A stretch of 64,000 nt of DNA from a virus, in IMG/VR virus record IMGVR_UViG_3300019755_000002, positions 1 to 64,000 of that record; one strand, 5' to 3'. Position numbers and translations under genes: made by a program. How positions within the stretch are numbered: the first letter of the stretch is position 1; each line of letters starts with the position of its first letter. The notes beneath the pieces were generated by a model. It did not search any database. It was not told where the DNA came from and worked only from the letters and a program-made list of their open reading frames with translations. This document shows, piece by piece, positions 2,797 to 45,318 of this stretch.

Positions 2797-3043
2797 CAGA
2801 CAGGTTTTTAATTTACGTTCGCGGTGGTGGGTAGAGTTCCCCACGGGGTAATGTTTCAATTATACCGCGAGGCTAAAAAACTGGGTGAAAAGTAAAATTT
2901 AGATTACAGACAGGTTTTTGAAAAGGGTGTCGGTGTTGGAAAAGTTCTCAGACAGGTTTTTGAAACAACCACGTTGACGGACAGGTTTTTAATCGTCAGA
3001 CACCTTTTTTAACAGTCAGACAAGATTTTGAAAAAGGTGTCTG
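2797..3043. repeat. Iteron-like CAGACAGGTTTTT repeats
   Basis: Copies at 2797, 2907, 2949; variants at 2978, 2997, 3017; inverted copy at 3031-3043; non-coding DNA. Confidence 0.8.
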
Positions 3044-3689: not shown

Positions 3690-3938
3690 ACATATTATGT
3701 CAAGAACAGGGTTTTGATTGTCGGACATATTATGTCAAGAACATGGTTTTGATTGTCGGACATATTATGTCAAGAACCTAGTTCGATTGTATGACATATT
3801 ATGTCCCTTTTTTGATATTTTGGGCGTTAATGTTTATTTCATGGTTGATTGGCATAAAATTGTGGGCGTGAACGTTGATTTTTACCTATTTTTTATTCCT
3901 GTTTTGGGTTTTGGCGTGGCTGTTGACATAATATGTCA
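3690..3938. repeat. 34-35-bp tandem repeat with palindromic core GACATATTATGTC
   Basis: ACATATTATGTC at 3690, 3725, 3760, 3794; inverted TGACATAATATGTCA at 3924-3938. Confidence 0.9.
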
Positions 3939-4007
3939 CGGGTTTGGGTTGTATGCCTTTTTGAAATCCACGCCCTAAGCCAAAAATAAATGTTAACCAC
4001 GTCCAGA

Positions 4008-8147: not shown

Positions 8148-9890
8148 ATGAATAAAAATACTTTAGCGGTTGTTAGAGATTTAAAAGAAGCTAACCAAGA
8201 CTTTGAATGGTACCCAACCACAGTTGAGCAAATAAAAGTCGTTACCGACGACATCAAAACAATTAAAAAAGACTTTGACTTTAACGCCCGATACCGAGAA
8301 GAGATAAAAGTGTTAGATGTTGGTGCTGGGGATGGTCGTGTTTTACAGGCTATCAAAGACTCTTTTGACGGTGATGAGAGTTTCCCCGTTGAAGCGTATG
8401 CCGTTGAAAAAGCCTCGGTTCACACCTCAACTTACCGAACAAAAGGTATCACCTTAATCGGTACGGAGTTTAACCAAATAAACTTTATTTCTAAAAGTTG
8501 TCATGTTGCCTTTGTGAATCCACCTTACAGCGAATTTTCGTACTGGCTACAGACGTTACTACGACACCTTAATTTTAGCTTGCTATACGCTGTTATTCCT
8601 CAGCGTTGGGTTGAGGACAAAGGTATTAGTGAGGCTATGGAAGCAAGGGGAATTAAGTTTCATAAAGTTTTGGCCGAATCCGACTTTCTAAATGCGGATC
8701 GTGCAGCAAGAGCGAAAGTAAACGTTGTTCGTTTTAGCTTTAATGATTTAGATCCTGAAAGTTTTGGTCGTTTTAAAGAACGACATTATAAACCAGGGGT
8801 TAACCAATCGGCAACAGACCCGTTCCAGTTATTCCTTGAAAATGAGTTGGGCTTGAAAAAGACCTACTCACATACAACGGAAAAATTTAGTGAACATTGT
8901 GAAAAATCGCGTGTGAAAAAGGAAATGGAAACGGAAGGCTCTGTGGGGTTTGAGCTTGTCGAGTCTAAGGGTATCTTGTGGGCTTTACTCGATAATTACG
9001 AAATAGACCTAGCGAAAACGTTAGAGCAATACAAGTTAATTAGCAAAATAGACGCTCAACTATTACAAGAGCTTGGTGTTGATTACAATGGCCTACAAAA
9101 AGGTGCTAAGGAGAAATTACTTGGTTATCGTAATGTTTATTGGTCACTCTTGTTTGATAAACTTGAAGCCATTTCTAGCCGTTTAACGAGTAAATATAAA
9201 AAGACGCTGCTTAATAAACTCGCGTCGAATGCTTTGGACTTCACCTATACCAACGCTATTTACATCATTCAATATGCGGTTGAAATTGGTAACGAAATGA
9301 TTGAGAAAAGCTTGATTGATGTCTACAAAGGCTTGACTAGCCCCGAATCAATCTTGCGTTACTACAAATCCAACAACCACGTTTACCGTGATGATTGGCG
9401 CTATAACCAAGATGCTAAAGACAATGCCAAGTATATTCTGGATTACCGCTTCATTCATAGCAATTGGACTAACTTCAGTTCTCATTCTTGGGAAAAAGGG
9501 TTAGCTGAGGGTGCGAGAGAATTTACCACGGATTTACTCGTGGCCTTTAAGTTACTTGGTTATAGTGACTTGTGTGTTACTAAAGCTTTTGATGATGTTG
9601 AGTCGGGCAAGAGTGTAGCAATAAAGGGTACGCACCCCAACGGCAACGTTCTGGAATTAGTGACACTTAAATTCTACTTAAATGGCAACCGACACCTTAA
9701 ATTTAACCAAGATGCTATGTTGCGTTTTAACGTTACCGTATCACGTTTATTGGGTTGGGTTCGCAGTAAAGAAGACTTTATGGATGAATCCGAGACAACC
9801 AAGCGTGTGGATGATGATGCTTGGGAAATTAGCAAAGATATGAAAGTGACCCCGAGTAATATCTTTTTACTCACGGATAAAGCGGCGTAA
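8148..9890 (+). CDS. N6-adenine DNA methyltransferase-like protein (DUF4942-like C-terminus)
   Basis: WYPT, VLDVGAGDG (motif I), NPPY (motif IV), C-terminal FYLNGNRHLKF. Confidence 0.8.
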   Translation: MNKNTLAVVRDLKEANQDFEWYPTTVEQIKVVTDDIKTIKKDFDFNARYREEIKVLDVGAGDGRVLQAIKDSFDGDESFPVEAYAVEKASVHTSTYRTKGITLIGTEFNQINFISKSCHVAFVNPPYSEFSYWLQTLLRHLNFSLLYAVIPQRWVEDKGISEAMEARGIKFHKVLAESDFLNADRAARAKVNVVRFSFNDLDPESFGRFKERHYKPGVNQSATDPFQLFLENELGLKKTYSHTTEKFSEHCEKSRVKKEMETEGSVGFELVESKGILWALLDNYEIDLAKTLEQYKLISKIDAQLLQELGVDYNGLQKGAKEKLLGYRNVYWSLLFDKLEAISSRLTSKYKKTLLNKLASNALDFTYTNAIYIIQYAVEIGNEMIEKSLIDVYKGLTSPESILRYYKSNNHVYRDDWRYNQDAKDNAKYILDYRFIHSNWTNFSSHSWEKGLAEGAREFTTDLLVAFKLLGYSDLCVTKAFDDVESGKSVAIKGTHPNGNVLELVTLKFYLNGNRHLKFNQDAMLRFNVTVSRLLGWVRSKEDFMDESETTKRVDDDAWEISKDMKVTPSNIFLLTDKAA

Positions 9891-35272: not shown

Positions 35273-35340
35273 TTGGTTGGCTCCAAAGGGAGCCGATTTT
35301 ATTCAGGTAGATACAATTTGGATTGACGATAGGATCACAC

Positions 35341-36420
35341 ATGAAAACATTCATAATGCCCGAGGGCAGCCGAGTTATAAACTTCCCTTTATCTTCTTTA
35401 GGGCCAAACTCCACCTTAGATAAATACCTTCAACATTGCTATATTCTTGGAGACCCACATTTAGGTCGTAAATTCAAAACGGGGGTTCCTATTCATCGTC
35501 TTGGTGATCGTGAACAAGCCGTCAAAGTTGATTTTCAAGAAAGTCTTATTGGCCTTAAACCAGGTAGAAAATTCCACGTTTGTATGGGGGACTTGTTTGA
35601 TAAGTTTACCGTACCAAATGAATGGGTAGAATTCGCTTATCAAACATACCGTGAAGCAGCGTTAAAGTTCCCTGCAGTGACGTTCATTGTTATTCAAGGA
35701 AACCATGACGCATCAAAAGATAAATCTAAAGTAAGTTCTTTTGAAATATTCGCTGAGCTTTGTAAGCCAATAAGCAACATTAAAGTGCTAACGGAACACC
35801 CAATATTTATCCCACACGATCAATTAAACTTTCTATTCGTTCCGTGGACTCCTTTTAAAACAACGTCTGAACTCTTAGCTTTAGAATTTCCACTATTAAA
35901 CAAAGTTAAAAATTCACCCTTTGTAGCTTTCGGCCATTGGGACACAAAAAGCCACGGTGAAGATATTTGTGAGAACATCATCCCTCACGACCATTTTACT
36001 CGTGATTGCTGTGACGGGGTGGTTACTGGTCATTATCATAAACCCGAAAGAACTATGTTAAAGAAAATTGAATTGTTTGTTACTGGGTCAATGCAGCCAT
36101 ACGCACATGGTGAAGAAGCCGACGACGTAGATAATCCTATGTACGTTACTGACACTAAAGCAAACGTCGAAGCAAAACTTATTGAAGACGAAACCTTTTA
36201 TAAAAACAAAGTGCTTAGGGTATTGGTTGAACAAGACGACACACCGTTAGCGGGTATTGATTGCTATGCACTCACCCACAAAAAGACCGCGCCGTTAGGA
36301 GAAGAAAACGACGTGGACGTGGAAATTGACGACTTTGATATTAAGGGGTTATTCAACAGCGTAATGACAGAAAAAGGCGTTTCCTCTGAACTAACGCAAG
36401 AACTATGGGCTAAATTATGA
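35341..36420 (+). CDS. SbcD/Mre11-like metallophosphoesterase nuclease
   Basis: GDPHLG, GDLFD, GNHD, GHYH. Confidence 0.9.
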   Translation: MKTFIMPEGSRVINFPLSSLGPNSTLDKYLQHCYILGDPHLGRKFKTGVPIHRLGDREQAVKVDFQESLIGLKPGRKFHVCMGDLFDKFTVPNEWVEFAYQTYREAALKFPAVTFIVIQGNHDASKDKSKVSSFEIFAELCKPISNIKVLTEHPIFIPHDQLNFLFVPWTPFKTTSELLALEFPLLNKVKNSPFVAFGHWDTKSHGEDICENIIPHDHFTRDCCDGVVTGHYHKPERTMLKKIELFVTGSMQPYAHGEEADDVDNPMYVTDTKANVEAKLIEDETFYKNKVLRVLVEQDDTPLAGIDCYALTHKKTAPLGEENDVDVEIDDFDIKGLFNSVMTEKGVSSELTQELWAKL

Positions 36421-38465
36421 TTTCAAAAATTAAATATAAAATTGACTTTAGTAATGGGAAATCTCGAAGTAACGATGCGGAGTTATTAAACGGCAGCACC
36501 ATGATCACGGGTAAAAATGGTCGCGGTAAAAGCCTAAATCTTGAAATGATTGCCTTCACATTATTTGGCACCGTAGCGCTACGTGGAAAAACGGGGGATT
36601 ACTCAAGAATAAAATCGCAAATAGATGTTACCATTAAAAATACGCCCTATGTTATTAAGCGTACTAAGAGTGGTGCCGACGTGTTAAATGTCGATGGAGA
36701 GCCACTAGCAACGGGTCATAAAGCCGTTAACGAATGGATAATATCTACATTAGGTTATGGTTATGATGTCTTCCGTATCGCGCATTGGTGCGCTCAAGGA
36801 GACATTCAAGCGTTAGCTAATATGTTACCAACACAGCGTAAGCAAATGATTGATGATGTTGCGGGCTTAACGCAAATGGACGGCCTGATTAAGCTTGTAG
36901 GTGAAGAGGCTAAAATTTATCGTGCGGGGATTACCGCTGCTGAAAGTGTCTTAATAAAACCCACCAAACCCACCAAACCCGAAGGTCAGAGCGAAGGGGA
37001 TTTAAACATAGGCCTAGAACAACTTGAAGTTGAACGTTTAGACTATTTAAAGCTGGAGGCGGAAGTTAATAGCTTACCCCCTTTAGTCGAACCTGTTAGA
37101 CCAACCGAACCTCAACCGTTAACATTACCAGCGCAACCAGAGGAATTAACGGTCGAATTGTTAGAAATTGTACCCGTGACTATTCCAGAAAATTTAGCGG
37201 GGCAAGATATTTTTCAAGTGATTAGGGACTTAAATGAACGACGTCAACAGCTAGAATCCAACCAACGGGATTTATCCGCTATTAAGCAGCAGTTATTGAC
37301 CGCACCACAGTATATTGTAGACATGATCCCAGACGTTGCCTTATTAACGCGAGAAGAACTGGAACGTCAGCATGAAGTTTATAAACAAGCGACGTTAAAG
37401 AAACAGCTTCTAGACCAAGGTGACGTTACGTGTCCCAACTGTAATGTCGCACACCCTTTAGCAAGTGACGCACTAAAGGAATACGAGAATGTTGACTTAA
37501 ACATACTAAACTCAGCACCTTTAAGTTTCCAAGACTTTGAACGTTGTCTTAAGTGGAAAGACTTGAATAGTCGCGTAGCAGAATTAGAAGCAACACTACA
37601 ACCGTTACCAACAATCTTAATGTTATTAGAGCAATTTGAGCCTATTGCGGCACAATTAAACGCTAACGAAAATGCTGAGAAAACTAATGCGGAAAAAATT
37701 GCACAGCAAGCTAAAAGTAACGAACATAACTATCGCCAATGGCAGAACACTTGCCAAAGCCTTAAGCAAAGCCACGACAATAGTGTGGCGCAGTTTAACG
37801 CTAATTTAGAAAACTTTGCCAAAGCCTGTGAAGCGCATAAAGCCGAGGTAATTAGACAAGAGCAAATAGTTAGCACTTGGCACCAATGGGGAACGGATTT
37901 CAAACTAGAGAACCAAGCGTTAATCTCGGAGGTAAATAAAGCACTTCAAACTTGGGCGACGTATCACACCCTTGTTGATGTTTATAATAAACAGCTAACA
38001 TCATACGAATTAGCTAAGAAAAGCATAGATAACGACAAAGCCCTACTTGAAGACCGAAACAAGGCTAAAGCGGCCTTGACGGAAATAAAAGCACGAGTAA
38101 AAACGTACATCGTGCCAAGCCTTAATAAAGTCGCTAGTTATCTACTTAGTGAAATGACAGGCGGTGAGCATAGCAACGTTGTTATTGATGAAAACTTTGA
38201 AGTGGACGTGGACGGCCAACCGCTTAGAACGCTGTCCGGATCGGGAAAAGACATCACAAATTTAGCCATTCGTATTGGTCTTGGAAGAATTCTCACGCAT
38301 AAAGTTTTACCCGTAATGATGTTGGATGAAATTGACGCCGCTATGGACGAAGAACGTGCTCAATATACTTGGGATTGCATACAAAAAATAACGCCCCGAA
38401 TTGGTCAAGTCCTACAAGTTAGCCATAAAGATTTACCTGCTCAACATAGAATGGAGGTGGTTTAG
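36417..38465 (+). CDS. SbcC/Rad50-like ATPase
   Basis: GKNGRGKS, coiled coil with CPNC hook, LSGSG, MLDE. Confidence 0.9.
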   Translation: MISKIKYKIDFSNGKSRSNDAELLNGSTMITGKNGRGKSLNLEMIAFTLFGTVALRGKTGDYSRIKSQIDVTIKNTPYVIKRTKSGADVLNVDGEPLATGHKAVNEWIISTLGYGYDVFRIAHWCAQGDIQALANMLPTQRKQMIDDVAGLTQMDGLIKLVGEEAKIYRAGITAAESVLIKPTKPTKPEGQSEGDLNIGLEQLEVERLDYLKLEAEVNSLPPLVEPVRPTEPQPLTLPAQPEELTVELLEIVPVTIPENLAGQDIFQVIRDLNERRQQLESNQRDLSAIKQQLLTAPQYIVDMIPDVALLTREELERQHEVYKQATLKKQLLDQGDVTCPNCNVAHPLASDALKEYENVDLNILNSAPLSFQDFERCLKWKDLNSRVAELEATLQPLPTILMLLEQFEPIAAQLNANENAEKTNAEKIAQQAKSNEHNYRQWQNTCQSLKQSHDNSVAQFNANLENFAKACEAHKAEVIRQEQIVSTWHQWGTDFKLENQALISEVNKALQTWATYHTLVDVYNKQLTSYELAKKSIDNDKALLEDRNKAKAALTEIKARVKTYIVPSLNKVASYLLSEMTGGEHSNVVIDENFEVDVDGQPLRTLSGSGKDITNLAIRIGLGRILTHKVLPVMMLDEIDAAMDEERAQYTWDCIQKITPRIGQVLQVSHKDLPAQHRMEVV

Positions 38466-38466
38466 T

Positions 38467-38709
38467 ATGTTTATTAGTGAAGAATGGTTGACGTTGTTTC
38501 TCTTAATGTCAATTTTGGGGATGCTTTATTTCTTTATCTTAGCCTTTAAGCTCGGCAAGCGGTTAGTTTATTGGGTTTGCTATTGGTATACACATTTTAC
38601 GTGCAACCATATTTATGTACCAGGTAAACACAGTCATAAAGGTTCGGTTTTATTTTGCATAAACTGCTATCGAACTAAAGAAAACAGGAAAGAGGTAAAT
38701 GGGAGGTAG
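38467..38709 (+). CDS. Small membrane protein
   Basis: GGAGG RBS; TM helix and C..C motif. Confidence 0.6.
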
Positions 38710-38716
38710 ACAACAA

Positions 38717-38959
38717 ATGAAAACAGGTCTTGCAGCCATTCTTGCCATAGCCGCTAGCGGCGTCTCTGTTCAGCAAGAGATAGAAAACGCCACTCGAAAG
38801 TCGAGTAATCGTGTGTGGAAACCTATAGCCTCAAAAGCCAAGGGGTATTCGTTCAACGACGCTGGGGTGGCTAATAAGCTATCAAGGGTTGGACGTAACG
38901 AACCCTGTCCTTGTGGCTGCGGTAAGAAATTCAAATATTGTACTTTAATTAAGGAATAA
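38717..38959 (+). CDS. SEC-C motif protein
   Basis: [17 protein letters not shown]. Confidence 0.8.
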
Positions 38960-38961
38960 AA

Positions 38962-39120
38962 ATGTTAGAACTTTTGGAATACGTCACTAGCGGTTTTTGG
39001 GTTTTCATAGGCTCAATAATTATTATACCGTTATTCTTACTTTGTACTGGCTGGGCTATCAATGCCTTACTGCTAGGTTTGTGGGGAAAGAAATGCTCAG
39101 ACATAGATATTTCACTTTAA
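38962..39120 (+). CDS. 52-aa membrane peptide
   Basis: Not in track; AAGGA RBS; hydrophobic. Confidence 0.5.
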   Translation: MLELLEYVTSGFWVFIGSIIIIPLFLLCTGWAINALLLGLWGKKCSDIDISL

Positions 39121-39154
39121 GGGGTTGTTAGTGTTTAAATTTAGGAGAACAATT

Positions 39155-39456
39155 ATGGATATGTATGGATTTATTGAAAAAATCAATCGTGAAGTTTTGC
39201 ACCCTTTGGGTTTGGCCATGACTAGAAACCCAGAAACGGCAGCAGCGATGGTCTTCTTATTTCGGATGATGGTGAATGGGAGAACGCGCCTGAAATGAAG
39301 ATAAAAACAGAAGATGCAATGGAATTAGGCTTTGCAAGAGACAACCGAAAAAGGCGCAGGCAAATGCGTAGGAATGCCCAGGCATTATTTGCGGCTGGTG
39401 GTTCTATAATGACTGTAGCTGCAAAGTGGAATTTAGAGCAAGCAAGAGCCGTATAA
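39155..39456 (+). pseudogene. Frameshifted small phage gene
   Basis: AGGAG RBS; INREVLHPLGLAMTRNPET continues as GSSDGLLISDDGEWE only after a frameshift near 39238; may be a sequencing error. Confidence 0.5.
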
Positions 39457-39552
39457 CCTTTGCGTTAAGCGGTGAGTGAAAGTTAGTGTGTTTTTGGCTA
39501 ACTGTAAGGAATCCGATGAGCGCAGCGAATGAATTTGAACGCGTTGTTAGAA
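39451..39552 (-). repeat. Integron attC-like site 1 (102 bp)
   Basis: Minus strand reads TTCTAAC-AACGC-GTTCAAAT...GCTTAAC-GCAAAG-GTTATAC (R''-L''...L'-R' with an extra C in L''). Confidence 0.85.
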
Positions 39553-39580
39553 TTGGCGTTAACTAAAAGGTATAATTAAA

Positions 39581-39898
39581 ATGGAACAAGCTTTAGCGGC
39601 AGTTTACGCAGAGGGTGAAAAGGCTTTTCATACTGGTAGTGTGAACCCCTACCCAAACACAGATCAGTACTGGGGTGAATGGACGGCAGGATGGACGGCT
39701 GAAAAATTAAAAGCAGAAAATAAAAACAAGGTAGAAACTATTGAAAATATAGGTCTATCAAAAAACAAACAAAAAGCAATTAAGCAATTTTCGGAAATGA
39801 TAGCCAAAGATTGTGCTGAATTGATTGAAACGGTAATAGAAAAACGAGTGAGAATGTACGCTACTCATTTAGCTGAAATAATGCAAAAAGATGATTAG
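39581..39898 (+). CDS. Cassette ORF, hypothetical
   Basis: Between attC1 and attC2. Confidence 0.75.
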   Translation: MEQALAAVYAEGEKAFHTGSVNPYPNTDQYWGEWTAGWTAEKLKAENKNKVETIENIGLSKNKQKAIKQFSEMIAKDCAELIETVIEKRVRMYATHLAEIMQKDD

Positions 39899-39901
39899 TC
39901 A

Positions 39902-39995
39902 TTCTAACCTTTGCGTTAAGCGGTGAGTGAAAGTTGGGAACCAACTGTAACGAGTCCGACGAATGAAATGAGTGAATTTAAACGCGTTGTTAGTG
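39902..39995 (-). repeat. Integron attC-like site 2 (94 bp)
   Basis: Shares TAACCTTTGCGTTAAGCGGTGAGTGAAAGTT and TGAATTT.AACGCGTTGTTAG with site 1. Confidence 0.85.
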
Positions 39996-40022
39996 ACGCA
40001 TTACGGGAATACTGGAGATAAT

Positions 40023-40277
40023 ATGCCAATTACAAAAGAGCAGCTAAAGGAAACTAAAGTTCCTTACTTAATAGTAGCTGACTGTAGAGCAGGAAAGAGA
40101 AAAGGACTACCTAAAAAAGAACAACCTAGCACCGTTGTTGGTTATTCAGTGAATGACCCCCTAGGTGTTGGTGGTGGTATTTTTGACACAAACCCATGTG
40201 TTTATTTTAAAAGTGGTGGATGGGTATTACTAAGCGACTTTGTGAAGAACCACTCTATTGTGAGTAATGCGCACTAA
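40023..40277 (+). CDS. Cassette ORF, hypothetical
   Basis: GGAG RBS; stop codon overlaps the TAAC of attC3. Confidence 0.75.
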   Translation: MPITKEQLKETKVPYLIVADCRAGKRKGLPKKEQPSTVVGYSVNDPLGVGGGIFDTNPCVYFKSGGWVLLSDFVKNHSIVSNAH

Positions 40278-40329
40278 CCTTTAACTTAAGCGGCAAGCTG
40301 TTTTTGTCACGTTGAATTATTTGTTATGT
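40272..40329 (-). repeat. Integron attC-like site 3 (58 bp)
   Basis: + strand CACTAAC-CTTTAA-CTTAAGC...CGTTGAAT-TATTT-GTTATGT; L boxes pair imperfectly. Confidence 0.7.
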
Positions 40330-40356
40330 TACCACGAAATAACGGAGATAAATATA

Positions 40357-41043
40357 ATGAAAACGACATACTGTAGTGATCGCGTTGAGCCTGTTGTTAG
40401 CTTTGCTGCTACACCATTAAATACTGAATCAATGAGGCAGCACAGAGAAAGATGGTTAAACAGGATTCAAGAAGCGGAGAGTAAATTTAACATAATAGAG
40501 AATTGCGTTCATGAAATACTAAACGACATAGAAGAGGATAAAATAACAACCTTAAAATCTGTTTATGATCGATTACTAATAGCGGTAAAGAAATCAAACT
40601 TAACCCCGACACCAGAAGCTAGAGTCGCAATGATTATTTATAGCGATGAATATGAAAAACAGTGCGGGGGATCAATGGATTTTTTTGATTCGCTAGATGA
40701 AGATAGAAAGCACCGATGTAAATTGGTGGTGGCAACATTAAATAACCTATCAGCAACGGATAAGAAGGTGTTACTAACCGCTTTAAGAAGCAAGGGTTTT
40801 ACGAAGAATAAAGTATACGCCGATAGCTTAGAAAAAAAACGTGAGTTTAATTCAGCAATAAAGTTAACGAGTCTAGGTCTTATTAATGGTGAGGTTACTT
40901 ATGAACATACTAATGGCTATGCTGTAACTGGGTTTGGTAGAACTTGGGTTGACGGTAAGTCATGGAATAGTTTTAAAGGTGAGTTAACGAAAAAGGGGAT
41001 CGAGGTGGCAAAAGTCCTTCTCCCCCACATTAGACCCGTTTAA
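40357..41043 (+). CDS. Hypothetical protein, possibly mosaic
   Basis: GGAG RBS; attC half-site remnant TTGAGCCTGTTGTTAG at about 40385-40400. Confidence 0.7.
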   Translation: MKTTYCSDRVEPVVSFAATPLNTESMRQHRERWLNRIQEAESKFNIIENCVHEILNDIEEDKITTLKSVYDRLLIAVKKSNLTPTPEARVAMIIYSDEYEKQCGGSMDFFDSLDEDRKHRCKLVVATLNNLSATDKKVLLTALRSKGFTKNKVYADSLEKKREFNSAIKLTSLGLINGEVTYEHTNGYAVTGFGRTWVDGKSWNSFKGELTKKGIEVAKVLLPHIRPV

Positions 41044-43667: not shown

Positions 43668-44975
43668 CTACCAAACTACACCACCATCCTTATCCACTGT
43701 TCTAGTGTCAGTAGAAGAATTGTCTAATTTACGCTCAGGCAGTGGTGAATTTAACAGTTCTTCTATACGTTCACCCCACTTATTATACGCTCGTGCTTGA
43801 TCTGGAAGATAGGAGTTTAAATCATAAACATCTTCAACACCTGGGGTAGAGTGCCCCAACATTATCTCGGCAACGTGTGGTAACGTTATCTTTTCGCCCT
43901 TAATCTCTTTAGTCCAGTTGGTTCTAGCGGTTCTACGCAAGTCATGTATCGTCCAGTGAACCATCTTAACATTGAAGTTTTTAAGAATGTACGCATTGAT
44001 GTTCTTGGGTATGTTTAAGTGTGACTGACCTTTAGCTTTATCACTAAACTTATCTGGCTTAGTAATGTTCGTAAAAACAAATTCCTTAGACCCACTTAGG
44101 GACAGGGCTTGCACGATCAAAGGTTTAGAAAACTTAGTAATAGGACGGACAATGGGTAAATCCATAAATTCCCCTGTCTTATGTTCTTCAGGTAATAACG
44201 TCCACAGACCAGTATTAAAATCAAATTGCTTTGGATGTGAATTCGTCAACTCCCCTATTCGACAACCATAGTATAAACATAACAATACCTGTATCTTTGT
44301 CTTTGCTGCAGAACGTCCCAACGTAAGCGCCTTGAGAATATAAATTAACTCATCATCGGACAAAACTCTTTTTCTTTTCTTACGAACAATTTTCAAATCA
44401 CGTCTAGCACTAAGATGTGCTAACGGGTTTTCGTTAACGACACGTTTACTTATACCTCGAAAGTACACTTGTTTTAAAAAGGACAACATCACCCCCGTCA
44501 TGTACGGTCTAAGCGGCATGTGTTTTTCAAAAAAATCCATCCAACGAGCGGTGCTTATTTGTGAAGCTGGATAGCCCCCCATTTCAGAAAGTACGTGCTG
44601 TTTCGTGGCCTTAACATTTCGTGAAGCTTTTTTCTTAACGCCTTCCTGTTCGTACCAATCGAGAAATAAATCACTAAAGGTTGAATATCTACCCTCCCCA
44701 AATAAATTTTTTTCTTGGGTTATTTTTGGATGAACACCCTCAGCGATACCCTCTTTAATTTTGGCGTTTAACTTTCGGGCTTTACTAAGAGAAAGGTCGG
44801 GGTAAGTCCCTAAGTCTAGTCTAGAAGGTTTGCCCCCTTTTGGGTATCTATACCTTAGTTGAAAAACTATTTTCCCTTTTGCCGAGACTCGAACACTTAA
44901 GCCATTGCCGTCGCTCTTTTCATATGTGCGTCCTTTTTTATCAGGTGATTTTAACCAAGTGTCAGTTAAGGCCAC
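43668..44975 (-). CDS. int: Tyrosine integrase, P4-like, with arm-binding domain
   Basis: N-terminal DGNGLSVRV...LGTYPDLSL..AR; catalytic R (GCRIGE), HDLRR, LGH, Y. Confidence 0.95.
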   Translation of the reverse strand: MALTDTWLKSPDKKGRTYEKSDGNGLSVRVSAKGKIVFQLRYRYPKGGKPSRLDLGTYPDLSLSKARKLNAKIKEGIAEGVHPKITQEKNLFGEGRYSTFSDLFLDWYEQEGVKKKASRNVKATKQHVLSEMGGYPASQISTARWMDFFEKHMPLRPYMTGVMLSFLKQVYFRGISKRVVNENPLAHLSARRDLKIVRKKRKRVLSDDELIYILKALTLGRSAAKTKIQVLLCLYYGCRIGELTNSHPKQFDFNTGLWTLLPEEHKTGEFMDLPIVRPITKFSKPLIVQALSLSGSKEFVFTNITKPDKFSDKAKGQSHLNIPKNINAYILKNFNVKMVHWTIHDLRRTARTNWTKEIKGEKITLPHVAEIMLGHSTPGVEDVYDLNSYLPDQARAYNKWGERIEELLNSPLPERKLDNSSTDTRTVDKDGGVVW

Positions 44976-44992: not shown

Positions 44993-45318
44993 AAATTGTG
45001 TACATATTTTCTCAATATTTCAGTTTAATAGTACCAAGATAAAAATATGTACATGGATATGTACACATATTTGTTGGCTGCAAGTGACCTAGTATGTCTT
45101 AATTTGACAGCCTTGAAAAGCACCTTTAGCCTAAGCCGCATAGATACTAGATTAAAGTTTTGTCCTGATGTGTCTTGATGTGTCGAAACAATACCATAGT
45201 CTCCACATGCTTTGTTTGAGAAAACATATTGCGAACACTTAAGGTATTGAATTAAAAACAAATAATAAAAAGCAATATTTGGAACTTTAAAAATATGTAC
45301 CTGATTCTGTACACTTTT
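44993..45318. other. Putative attP with arm-type sites
   Basis: Clusters of TGTAC(A) repeats at about 44999-45066 and 45296-45313 flanking a central segment; core not identified. Confidence 0.5.

Follow-up and report, generated by a model that had tools for sequence, protein, structure and literature searches.

A probable integrase-less integron-type cassette array, in reversed polarity, in a temperate marine Alteromonadaceae phage

The IMG/VR record IMGVR_UViG_3300019755_000002 is a phage genome of 78,716 bp (the 78.7-kb phage) with direct terminal repeats, and the stretch analysed here, called the window throughout, is its first 64 kb (64,000 nucleotides). From approximately position 39126 to approximately position 40400 of this window, small genes on the + strand alternate with repeated sites resembling attC, the recombination site of integron cassettes. 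The region lies among accessory genes, between a SbcD/SbcC-like nuclease pair (35323–38465) and a lysogeny module that includes a P4-type integrase, in a phage which is temperate and marine, and whose host belongs to the Alteromonadaceae. With a probability of roughly 0.65, we read this locus as an integrase-less integron-type array, i.e. a cluster of attC sites lacking integron-integrases (CALIN), which is built in reversed orientation and whose cassettes are exchanged by the integron integrase (IntI) of the host.

Three copies of a shared left arm (TAACCTTT, then GCG or AAC, then TTAAGCGG) begin at 39454, 39905 and 40275, all on the + strand, when shuffled sequences give 0.19. The right arm (TTGAACGC or TTAAACGC, followed by GTTGTTAG) occurs at 39535–39550 and 39978–39993, and right-arm copies with three mismatches lie at 39116–39131 and 40385–40400. 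Site 1 (39454–39550, the + strand being its bottom strand) consists of TAAC, a 4-nt spacer and GCGTT-AAG, then, beyond the middle of the site, an 18-nt bulge, TTT(G)AACGC, GTT and GTTAG. Site 2 (39905–39993, +) has A as its bulged base and is approximately 90% identical to sites of the viral contigs L001, L005 and L082, and site 3 (40275–40326, +) is compact, with a bulged G (GTTGAATT versus ACTTAAG). The core ends TAAC ... GTTA(G/T) are present in all three sites, the full 7-mers (GTATAAC, GTTAGAA) fitting RYYYAAC and GTTRRRY only in part. On the minus strand, the spacers are unequal, with AACGC (5 nt) before GTTCAA and GCAAAG (6 nt) after TTAAC. Counting 7-nt R boxes, the sites measure 102, 94 and 58 nt, and the extra base of the right arm (TTGAA versus TTAA) is G except in site 2, where it is A; both the three attC-like sites of these lengths and the extra base of sites 1 and 3 had been noticed in a preliminary description of this DNA, and arm patterns and R boxes bear them out. 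The locus accordingly has the composition of a CALIN, i.e. three co-oriented sites within 0.9 kb and no IntI, the sites being called here by their anatomy rather than by IntegronFinder.

The open reading frames (ORFs) located between the sites are preceded by ribosome-binding sites (RBSs), lie on the + strand and encode 47 and 53, 105, 84 and 228 aa. The leftmost cargo (39155–39456, +) is composed of two genes from the ORF list joined by an ATGA overlap, a 47-aa gene (39155–39298) with a weak match to DUF7415/phrog_3954 in Pfam and PHROGs scans, and a 53-aa gene (39295–39456) whose TAA stop codon falls inside the R box of site 1. Two complete cassettes follow, both on the + strand, with boundaries placed by the rule derived below from contigs L001 and L005: a putative mobile cassette B of 451 bp (39457–39907), comprising site 1 and the 105-aa gene (39581–39898), and a putative mobile cassette C of 370 bp (39908–40277), comprising site 2 and the 84-aa gene (40023–40277), whose TAA stop codon is again inside an R box, that of site 3. 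The 228-aa gene (40357–41043, +; ORF list), to which the Pfam and PHROGs scans assigned no family, comes after site 3. Nine homologues of the 105-aa protein, 56–85% identical to it, were found, and its predicted structure is helical, with a long helix (predicted local distance difference test, pLDDT, 83). The 84-aa protein, poorly predicted in structure (pLDDT 61), also has conserved homologues, some of them in phages without attC sites; given these conserved homologues, both are considered real genes. In one of the phages with an 84-aa homologue and no attC (L128:4780–5450), every small gene ends in TAATGCAC, present in four copies, which seems to be another type of repeated junction.

Cassettes that have once been circular classically have complementary ends. 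The ends of cassette B are complementary over 8 nt (GTTAGAAT, 39546–39553, with ATTCTAAC, 39901–39908), and those of cassette C over 16 nt on one side (39989–40004) and 15 nt on the other (40264–40278), so that the complementarity claimed for each complete cassette in the preliminary description is present in both. Extended to 17 cassettes of this site family, the comparison yields a mean complementarity of 8.1 nt for adjacent ends versus 4.6–4.7 nt for same-site or non-adjacent pairings, and at least 8 nt in 12 of 17 adjacent pairs versus 5.4% of the other pairs.

Judged on three independent lines (site geometry, attC sites of the host group and attC sites of Pseudoalteromonas phage H101), the + strand of the array is the attC bottom strand and also the coding strand. 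Read on the minus strand, each site displays R″ (..CTAAC), a 5-nt spacer, L″ with an extra C (GTTCAA), a variable middle, L′ (GCTTAAC), a 6-nt spacer and R′ (GTTA..), which is the layout of the top strand of the attCaadA7 control in the supplement of PMC9892861. For the second line, attC sites were taken from chromosomal arrays adjoining IntI genes above the curated cut-off (one Paraglaciecola metagenome-assembled genome (MAG), two Pseudoalteromonas and one Colwellia), their polarity being fixed by the position of intI. The bottom strands of these host sites start with TAACGC, pass through TAAGCGG, CCAACTGT and GTCCG and end with TTGTTA, resembling the phage + strand, and their hairpin shows compensatory changes in 16 of 30 pairs. 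The bottom strands of the H101 sites, which are IntI1 substrates (PMC9892861), have the same form; since all 16 annotated genes around these sites (16/16) are on the bottom strand, the published H101 array is also reversed. As a control of orientation, the longest ORF was located in each cassette: seven of nine host cassettes have it on the top strand, and 18 of 21 phage-array cassettes of the related site family have it on the bottom strand. A covariance model (R1) derived from 11 host attC sites only scored 28–42 bits on H101 and matched many sites of related phage arrays, where 27 of 29 matches are on the gene strand. Every ORF of the window array with an RBS and homologues is on the attC bottom strand, and the canonical layout, with the gene on the top strand and attC behind it, does not describe the locus; the polarity opposite to the canonical one, suspected in the preliminary description, is upheld by all three lines. 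By sequence, the window sites would represent a divergent branch of the attC family to which the chromosomal integrons of the host group owe their sites.

The clearest sign of exchange comes from related arrays. Among the matches listed, the exact 19-nt left arm was found in seven other IMG/VR contigs and in one Paraglaciecola MAG contig, and three of the viral contigs (L001, L005 and L006) have arrays of 5–8 sites with a small same-strand gene behind each. When the 10-kb loci of L001 and L005 are compared, DNA-level similarity is restricted to one stretch of 578 bp (L001:9343–9918, 92.6% identity). This unit starts exactly at a left-arm TAAC, with nothing in common upstream of it, and stops once the following left-arm TAAC and its conserved spacer have been included, the right end amounting to 9 nt in common (TAACCTTTA). 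Being bounded by TAAC at both ends, the unit defines the mobile element as an attC site plus the gene or genes that follow it, and its crossover coincides with the position of the IntI cut on the bottom strand. That this one unit passed between L001 and L005, phage contigs with no other relationship, is clear, and each of its breakpoints falls where IntI cuts. Precise cassette differences with breakpoints at R boxes, whose absence, together with that of attC model hits, the preliminary description had named as grounds for giving up an integron interpretation, are seen in these relatives. Moreover, genes that are initiated within the attC loop (the L082 methylase and those of L004, L006, L007 and L134) stay intact only if cassettes are delimited at TAAC. 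A crossover at the right-arm G|TT, reading the + strand as top strand, would have explained the left edge of the window array, but was excluded because the L001/L005 unit has the site upstream and not downstream, and because loop-initiated genes would lose their start codons.

Which enzyme could act on these sites was examined in the entire 78,716-bp genome. Its sole tyrosine recombinase, and single PF00589 match, is a P4-type integrase and not an IntI (43668–44975, −; PF13356 + PF00589, no TIGR02249 match). No IntI (TIGR02249) was found, and the intI that would adjoin the array, with attI and promoter, in a complete integron is lacking in this genome, so that what the preliminary description reported for the window holds for the whole phage. 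Two viral genomes with such arrays, rated 99% and 100% complete, are devoid of any tyrosine recombinase, hence the enzyme must be supplied by the host. A probable attP core of 44 nt (45186–45229, +) matches chromosomal sequence of Alteromonadaceae-family genomes, with 100% identity in one of them (G301) and matches in 79 of 401, which places the host in this family. All four candidate host genomes carry IntI above the curated cut-off, and of the five genomes whose attB-like match was best, four do so too; a strict attC pattern searched in these five genomes returned zero matches. On these sequence comparisons, the phage probably borrows the host IntI. The use of host IntI put forward in the preliminary description is thereby rendered plausible, although we infer both the role of IntI as the enzyme and a continuing exchange in this phage.

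In the mechanism that we propose, the mobile unit would begin with the C that closes one left-arm TAAC and finish with the TAA of the following one, with the attC hairpin ahead of its gene or genes. Host IntI, which would respond to the SOS signal that also induces the prophage, would act on the bottom strand, this strand being expected to fold when rendered single-stranded by replication or transcription, and would cut it at AA|C. Cassettes would then be exchanged through attC × attC recombination, the partners being co-infecting phages, prophages and occasionally a host integron. The bottom strand is here the G-rich sense strand; the reversed build would fit an exposure of the bottom strand in replication or in transcription, two possibilities that the skew does not separate.

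The edges of the array were delimited by comparison with a relative and by arm pairing. At the left edge (39116–39131, +), a right-arm end (GTTGTTAG) is cut short and runs directly into the region that holds the stop codon and RBS of a conserved 52-aa ORF. The only close relative found is a TARA contig (L134), obtained from metagenomes by using the SbcC-like neighbour as a handle and ending inside the array; the same handle retrieved no relative among viral contigs. This contig is co-linear with, and 85% identical to, positions 36697–39125 of the window, and has different content from 39126 onward. Given this co-linearity up to 39125, the left edge is a breakpoint and only about TGTTAG (39126–39131) derives from the array. 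On the right, an alternative distal arm of site 3 (40380–40400, +) pairs well by hand with the left arm of that site. This distal arm is probably the genuine one and would complete a long form of 126 nt (40275–40400), with the 228-aa ORF having its RBS and start codon in the loop; a similar right arm is seen in a long site of L134, where an ORF likewise starts in the loop. Of the two half-site remnants proposed in the preliminary description, the arm-like copies do exist; the left one is mostly conserved phage backbone, apart from the 6 nt just mentioned, and the right one is probably the distal arm of site 3.

Several features recur between the sites and the genes that follow them. The distance from site end to next ATG is a constant 29–30 nt (39550–39581, 39993–40023, 40326–40357). 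Small ORFs begin inside attC sites, cross the 3′ arm and terminate within a few bases of the following gene's start codon or right at it; they occur in the window (39486–39579 and 39923–40021) as well as in L001:9361–9480 and L134:2735–2854; the stop at 40021 can be compared with the next ATG at 40023, and in L134 and L001 the stop overlaps the next ATG or sits just past it. By their position in the sequence, these ORFs may be leader peptides opening an mRNA hairpin. Their conservation follows from that of the DNA and does not imply translation. Promoter-like matches number six, versus 7.5 expected from shuffles, and none of the sites carries a terminator-like hairpin. The only three + strand promoter-like matches of the region start at site ends, with −10 boxes overlapping the ATG, the total not being above that of shuffles.

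A number of results weigh against an integron-type array exchanged by host IntI. In the window, R1 left sites 1 and 2 undetected even with E values of up to 10 allowed, and site 3 scored only 10.3 bits (E 5.6, +), so that the attC covariance search suggested in the preliminary description missed two of the three sites and recovered the third weakly with this host-derived model. A sequence-only profile of host attC (nhmmer) ranks site 3 first (E 0.88) and site 2 second (E 2.4) in the entire window, both on the + strand and both weak. The 3′ arm of sites 1 and 2 is interrupted by an 18-nt bulge at a point where 0–3 bases are unpaired in host sites, and site 2 and its relatives have a bulged A instead of G. 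R-box closure has a calculated probability of 0.0007, 0.0014 and 0.02 for sites 1, 2 and 3, versus 0.16–0.73 for host sites; the same calculation gives 1e-6 to 2e-5 for the active H101 sites, which fold even more weakly, and the weak folding of phage sites is therefore compatible with activity. The right edge of the array is undefined, as an attC site after the 228-aa gene is absent, and the left edge is a partial site, unlike the product of a simple IntI reaction. No cassette gain or loss was seen inside the window's own array, no relative being close enough and the comparison with L134 covering the left edge only. Lastly, the cargo consists of phage gene families, none of which was found in host integrons, and the 84-aa family is unmatched in 140 Pseudoalteromonas genomes.

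Weak folding of the sites as DNA would also agree with their being conserved intergenic repeats with a regulatory or RNA role (such as mRNA hairpins or coupled leader peptides), the modules being shuffled by homologous recombination and IntI being uninvolved. An identity of approximately 90% in the repeats of phages with only 40–57% identity in their proteins, the constant spacing between site end and ATG, and small ORFs running across the 3′ arm up to the next start codon all agree with such a role. We nevertheless hold this explanation to be unlikely, as homologous recombination leaves unexplained the complementary cassette ends of 8–16 nt, and as the 9 nt common to L001 and L005 where the unit ends on the right are too short for homologous exchange, with nothing shared upstream of TAAC at its left end. 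Furthermore, promoter- and terminator-like matches are no commoner than in shuffles, the geometry and sequence of the sites fit host attC, and related sites are matched by R1.

The degeneracy of sites 1 and 2 relative to host sites, the partial site at the left edge and the small size of the array (only three sites, with no variation observed inside it) could point instead to a decaying relic, acquired once by illegitimate recombination and passively inherited, the sites being inactive in this phage. We find this quite improbable in view of cargo genes that are intact, conserved and co-oriented with phage transcription, of a bulged site type kept at approximately 90% identity in at least four unrelated contexts, of the movement of a cassette with this site type between L001 and L005, and of a close TARA relative that differs in content from the array edge onward. 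As for the tyrosine integrase located 3.3 kb from the array, it raises the idea that a recombinase other than IntI (the P4-type integrase of the phage, host XerC/D or an unrecognised phage enzyme) moves the cassettes. However, two essentially complete array-bearing phages lack any tyrosine recombinase, the P4-type integrase has its own attP core adjoining, and the sites show the attC geometry read by IntI, their H101 relatives being IntI1 substrates (PMC9892861), all of which makes this idea very doubtful. Exchange by host IntI thus remains our preferred explanation.

Clusters of attC without an integrase have been published for 17 phages (Qi, Rajabal, Ghaly, Tetu, Gillings 2023, PMC9892861). 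Phage CALINs are hence already known, and the window array is a further member, in a temperate phage. The nearest counterpart is the CALIN of Pseudoalteromonas phage H101 (PH101), which shares with it an IntI-less attC array, the host group, the site family and genes on the bottom strand; its sites, recombined by IntI1 (PMC9892861), have words in common with those of the window, the left arm ending in TAAGCGG and the right arm running from GTCCG to TTGTTAT. The two differ in that the window phage is temperate and unrelated to H101 at the DNA level, and in that window sites 1 and 2 carry the 18-nt bulge. The H101 layout is termed typical in PMC9892861, where reversed gene polarity is unmentioned and cassette exchange between phages is not presented. 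In H101, an 88-nt repeat precedes two attC sites (L133:2511–2598 and 3920–4007), with possible unannotated opposite-strand ORFs just before the repeat; H101 cassettes may hold genes in both directions. The CALIN of Tetrasphaera phage TJE1 is likewise a phage attC cluster recombined by IntI1 (PMC9892861), but its genes are on the top strand, from which it follows that reversal is not universal in phages. In Polaribacter phage P12002L, methylase genes on the bottom strand flank attC1. Neither in PMC9892861 nor in the literature searched did we find the reversed build, attC regions with gene starts, or a cassette exchanged between DNA-unrelated phage contigs.

Chromosomal integrons of Pseudoalteromonas, Colwellia and Paraglaciecola resemble the phage array by their R and L boxes, their central CCAACTGT and GTCCG and their complementary cassette ends. 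They differ from it by an adjoining intI, a strong folding of the sites and top-strand genes with attC behind them, three traits that are either reversed or lacking in the phage. The cassettes known to be inverted in Vibrio are mostly toxin–antitoxin cassettes with their own promoters. Inverted cassettes and arrays of Vibrio cholerae (PMC13108822) share with the window genes that are antisense to attC polarity; inverted cassettes are a minority in Vibrio, whereas the reversed form is the rule in the phage array. In the V. cholerae superintegron, placing bottom strands on the lagging-strand template lifts excision from <7×10^-5 to 3×10^-2, a more than 400-fold gain (Richard et al. 2024, PMC13108822). 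By analogy, such a gain could account for the reversed phage array. The array also recalls the PeSL (promoter–stem-loop) cassettes of T4-type phages, said to have been described by Arbiol, Comeau and Krisch in 2010, which reportedly combine a sigma-70 early promoter with a stem-loop and whose recombination has been proposed to be homology-based. In both cases, small phage accessory genes stand between conserved repeats and are shuffled as modules; the phage array differs by a promoter signal not above chance, by the lack of a terminator-like hairpin at its sites, and by its attC geometry and complementary cassette ends.

Integrons are usually seen as bacterial devices, and attC clusters of phages have been read as vehicles for bacterial cassettes, when the cargo is here made of phage genes. 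Together with the reversed sites, the unit moved between L001 and L005 and the lack of a recombinase in the phages involved, this suggests that phages trade their own accessory genes through the integron integrase of the host, the cargo of relatives including methyltransferases and a RtcB-like ligase. More tentatively, and with odds that we place somewhat below even, marine Alteromonadaceae phages, temperate and virulent alike, could share their own pool of reversed cassettes, in which attC leads the gene on the sense strand and which would move between unrelated phages through host IntI, host-type cassettes entering rarely. The recombinogenic strand would in this case be exposed by replication or transcription, and the hairpin region would supply a leader ORF, an RBS or a start codon. 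If such a pool exists, integrons would be a general engine of accessory-gene exchange among phages, beyond a passenger role. Reversed polarity may likewise reflect strand exposure, which connects it with the control of excision rate by array orientation in Vibrio.

Some related loci are of interest in their own right. Inside the reversed array of L006 (L006:1868–2333), a host-type attC scoring 88 bits with R1 and resembling a Pseudoalteromonas chromosomal site is associated with a 116-aa opposite-strand ORF, i.e. in canonical layout, predicted to contain a membrane anchor and a coiled coil. Among 401 genomes of the host family, the homology search with this ORF gave only chance-level coiled-coil matches. 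The cassette fits an occasional entry of host cassettes with attC in the right polarity; a 123-aa ORF overlaps on the gene strand and leaves this call ambiguous. In L082, the Paraglaciecola MAG contig (L082:1–1500), two sites of the family flank an MT-A70-type DNA methyltransferase gene whose start codon is in the attC loop, and a gene for a RtcB-like RNA ligase comes next; a counter-defence function of this cargo is plausible. A contig of 2393 bp from a Thermoanaerobaculia MAG (L045) bears three sites whose L-box words (GCGTTAAGCGG, CCGCTTCAACGC) are close to those of the window sites and whose right end GTTGTTAG is identical, the bulged base being C and not G.

These last two contigs and L083 were the useful ones, among the matches listed, of a pattern scan of genome contigs with 15 specified bases, which proved too loose. 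In viral contigs, the pattern CAACTGT..TCCG..TTGTTA was rejected as a source of arrays, 116 of its 117 stretches being chance matches, and an arm-pairing scanner intended for a site census was dropped as it overlooked the window's own sites. Elsewhere in the window, R1 gave weak matches at 8192–8244 (−; 16.9 bits, E 0.13) and 2950–3042 (−; 15.7 bits, E 0.26), the first within a coding region and both probably due to chance. A search of public phage records for DNA similarity to the whole phage, in near and distant modes, returned nothing. Finally, the SbcD/SbcC-like genes (35323–38465), of a type associated with hairpin and palindrome nucleases, stand directly upstream of an array of hairpin sites in the window and also in the TARA relative, a proximity that is maybe a coincidence.

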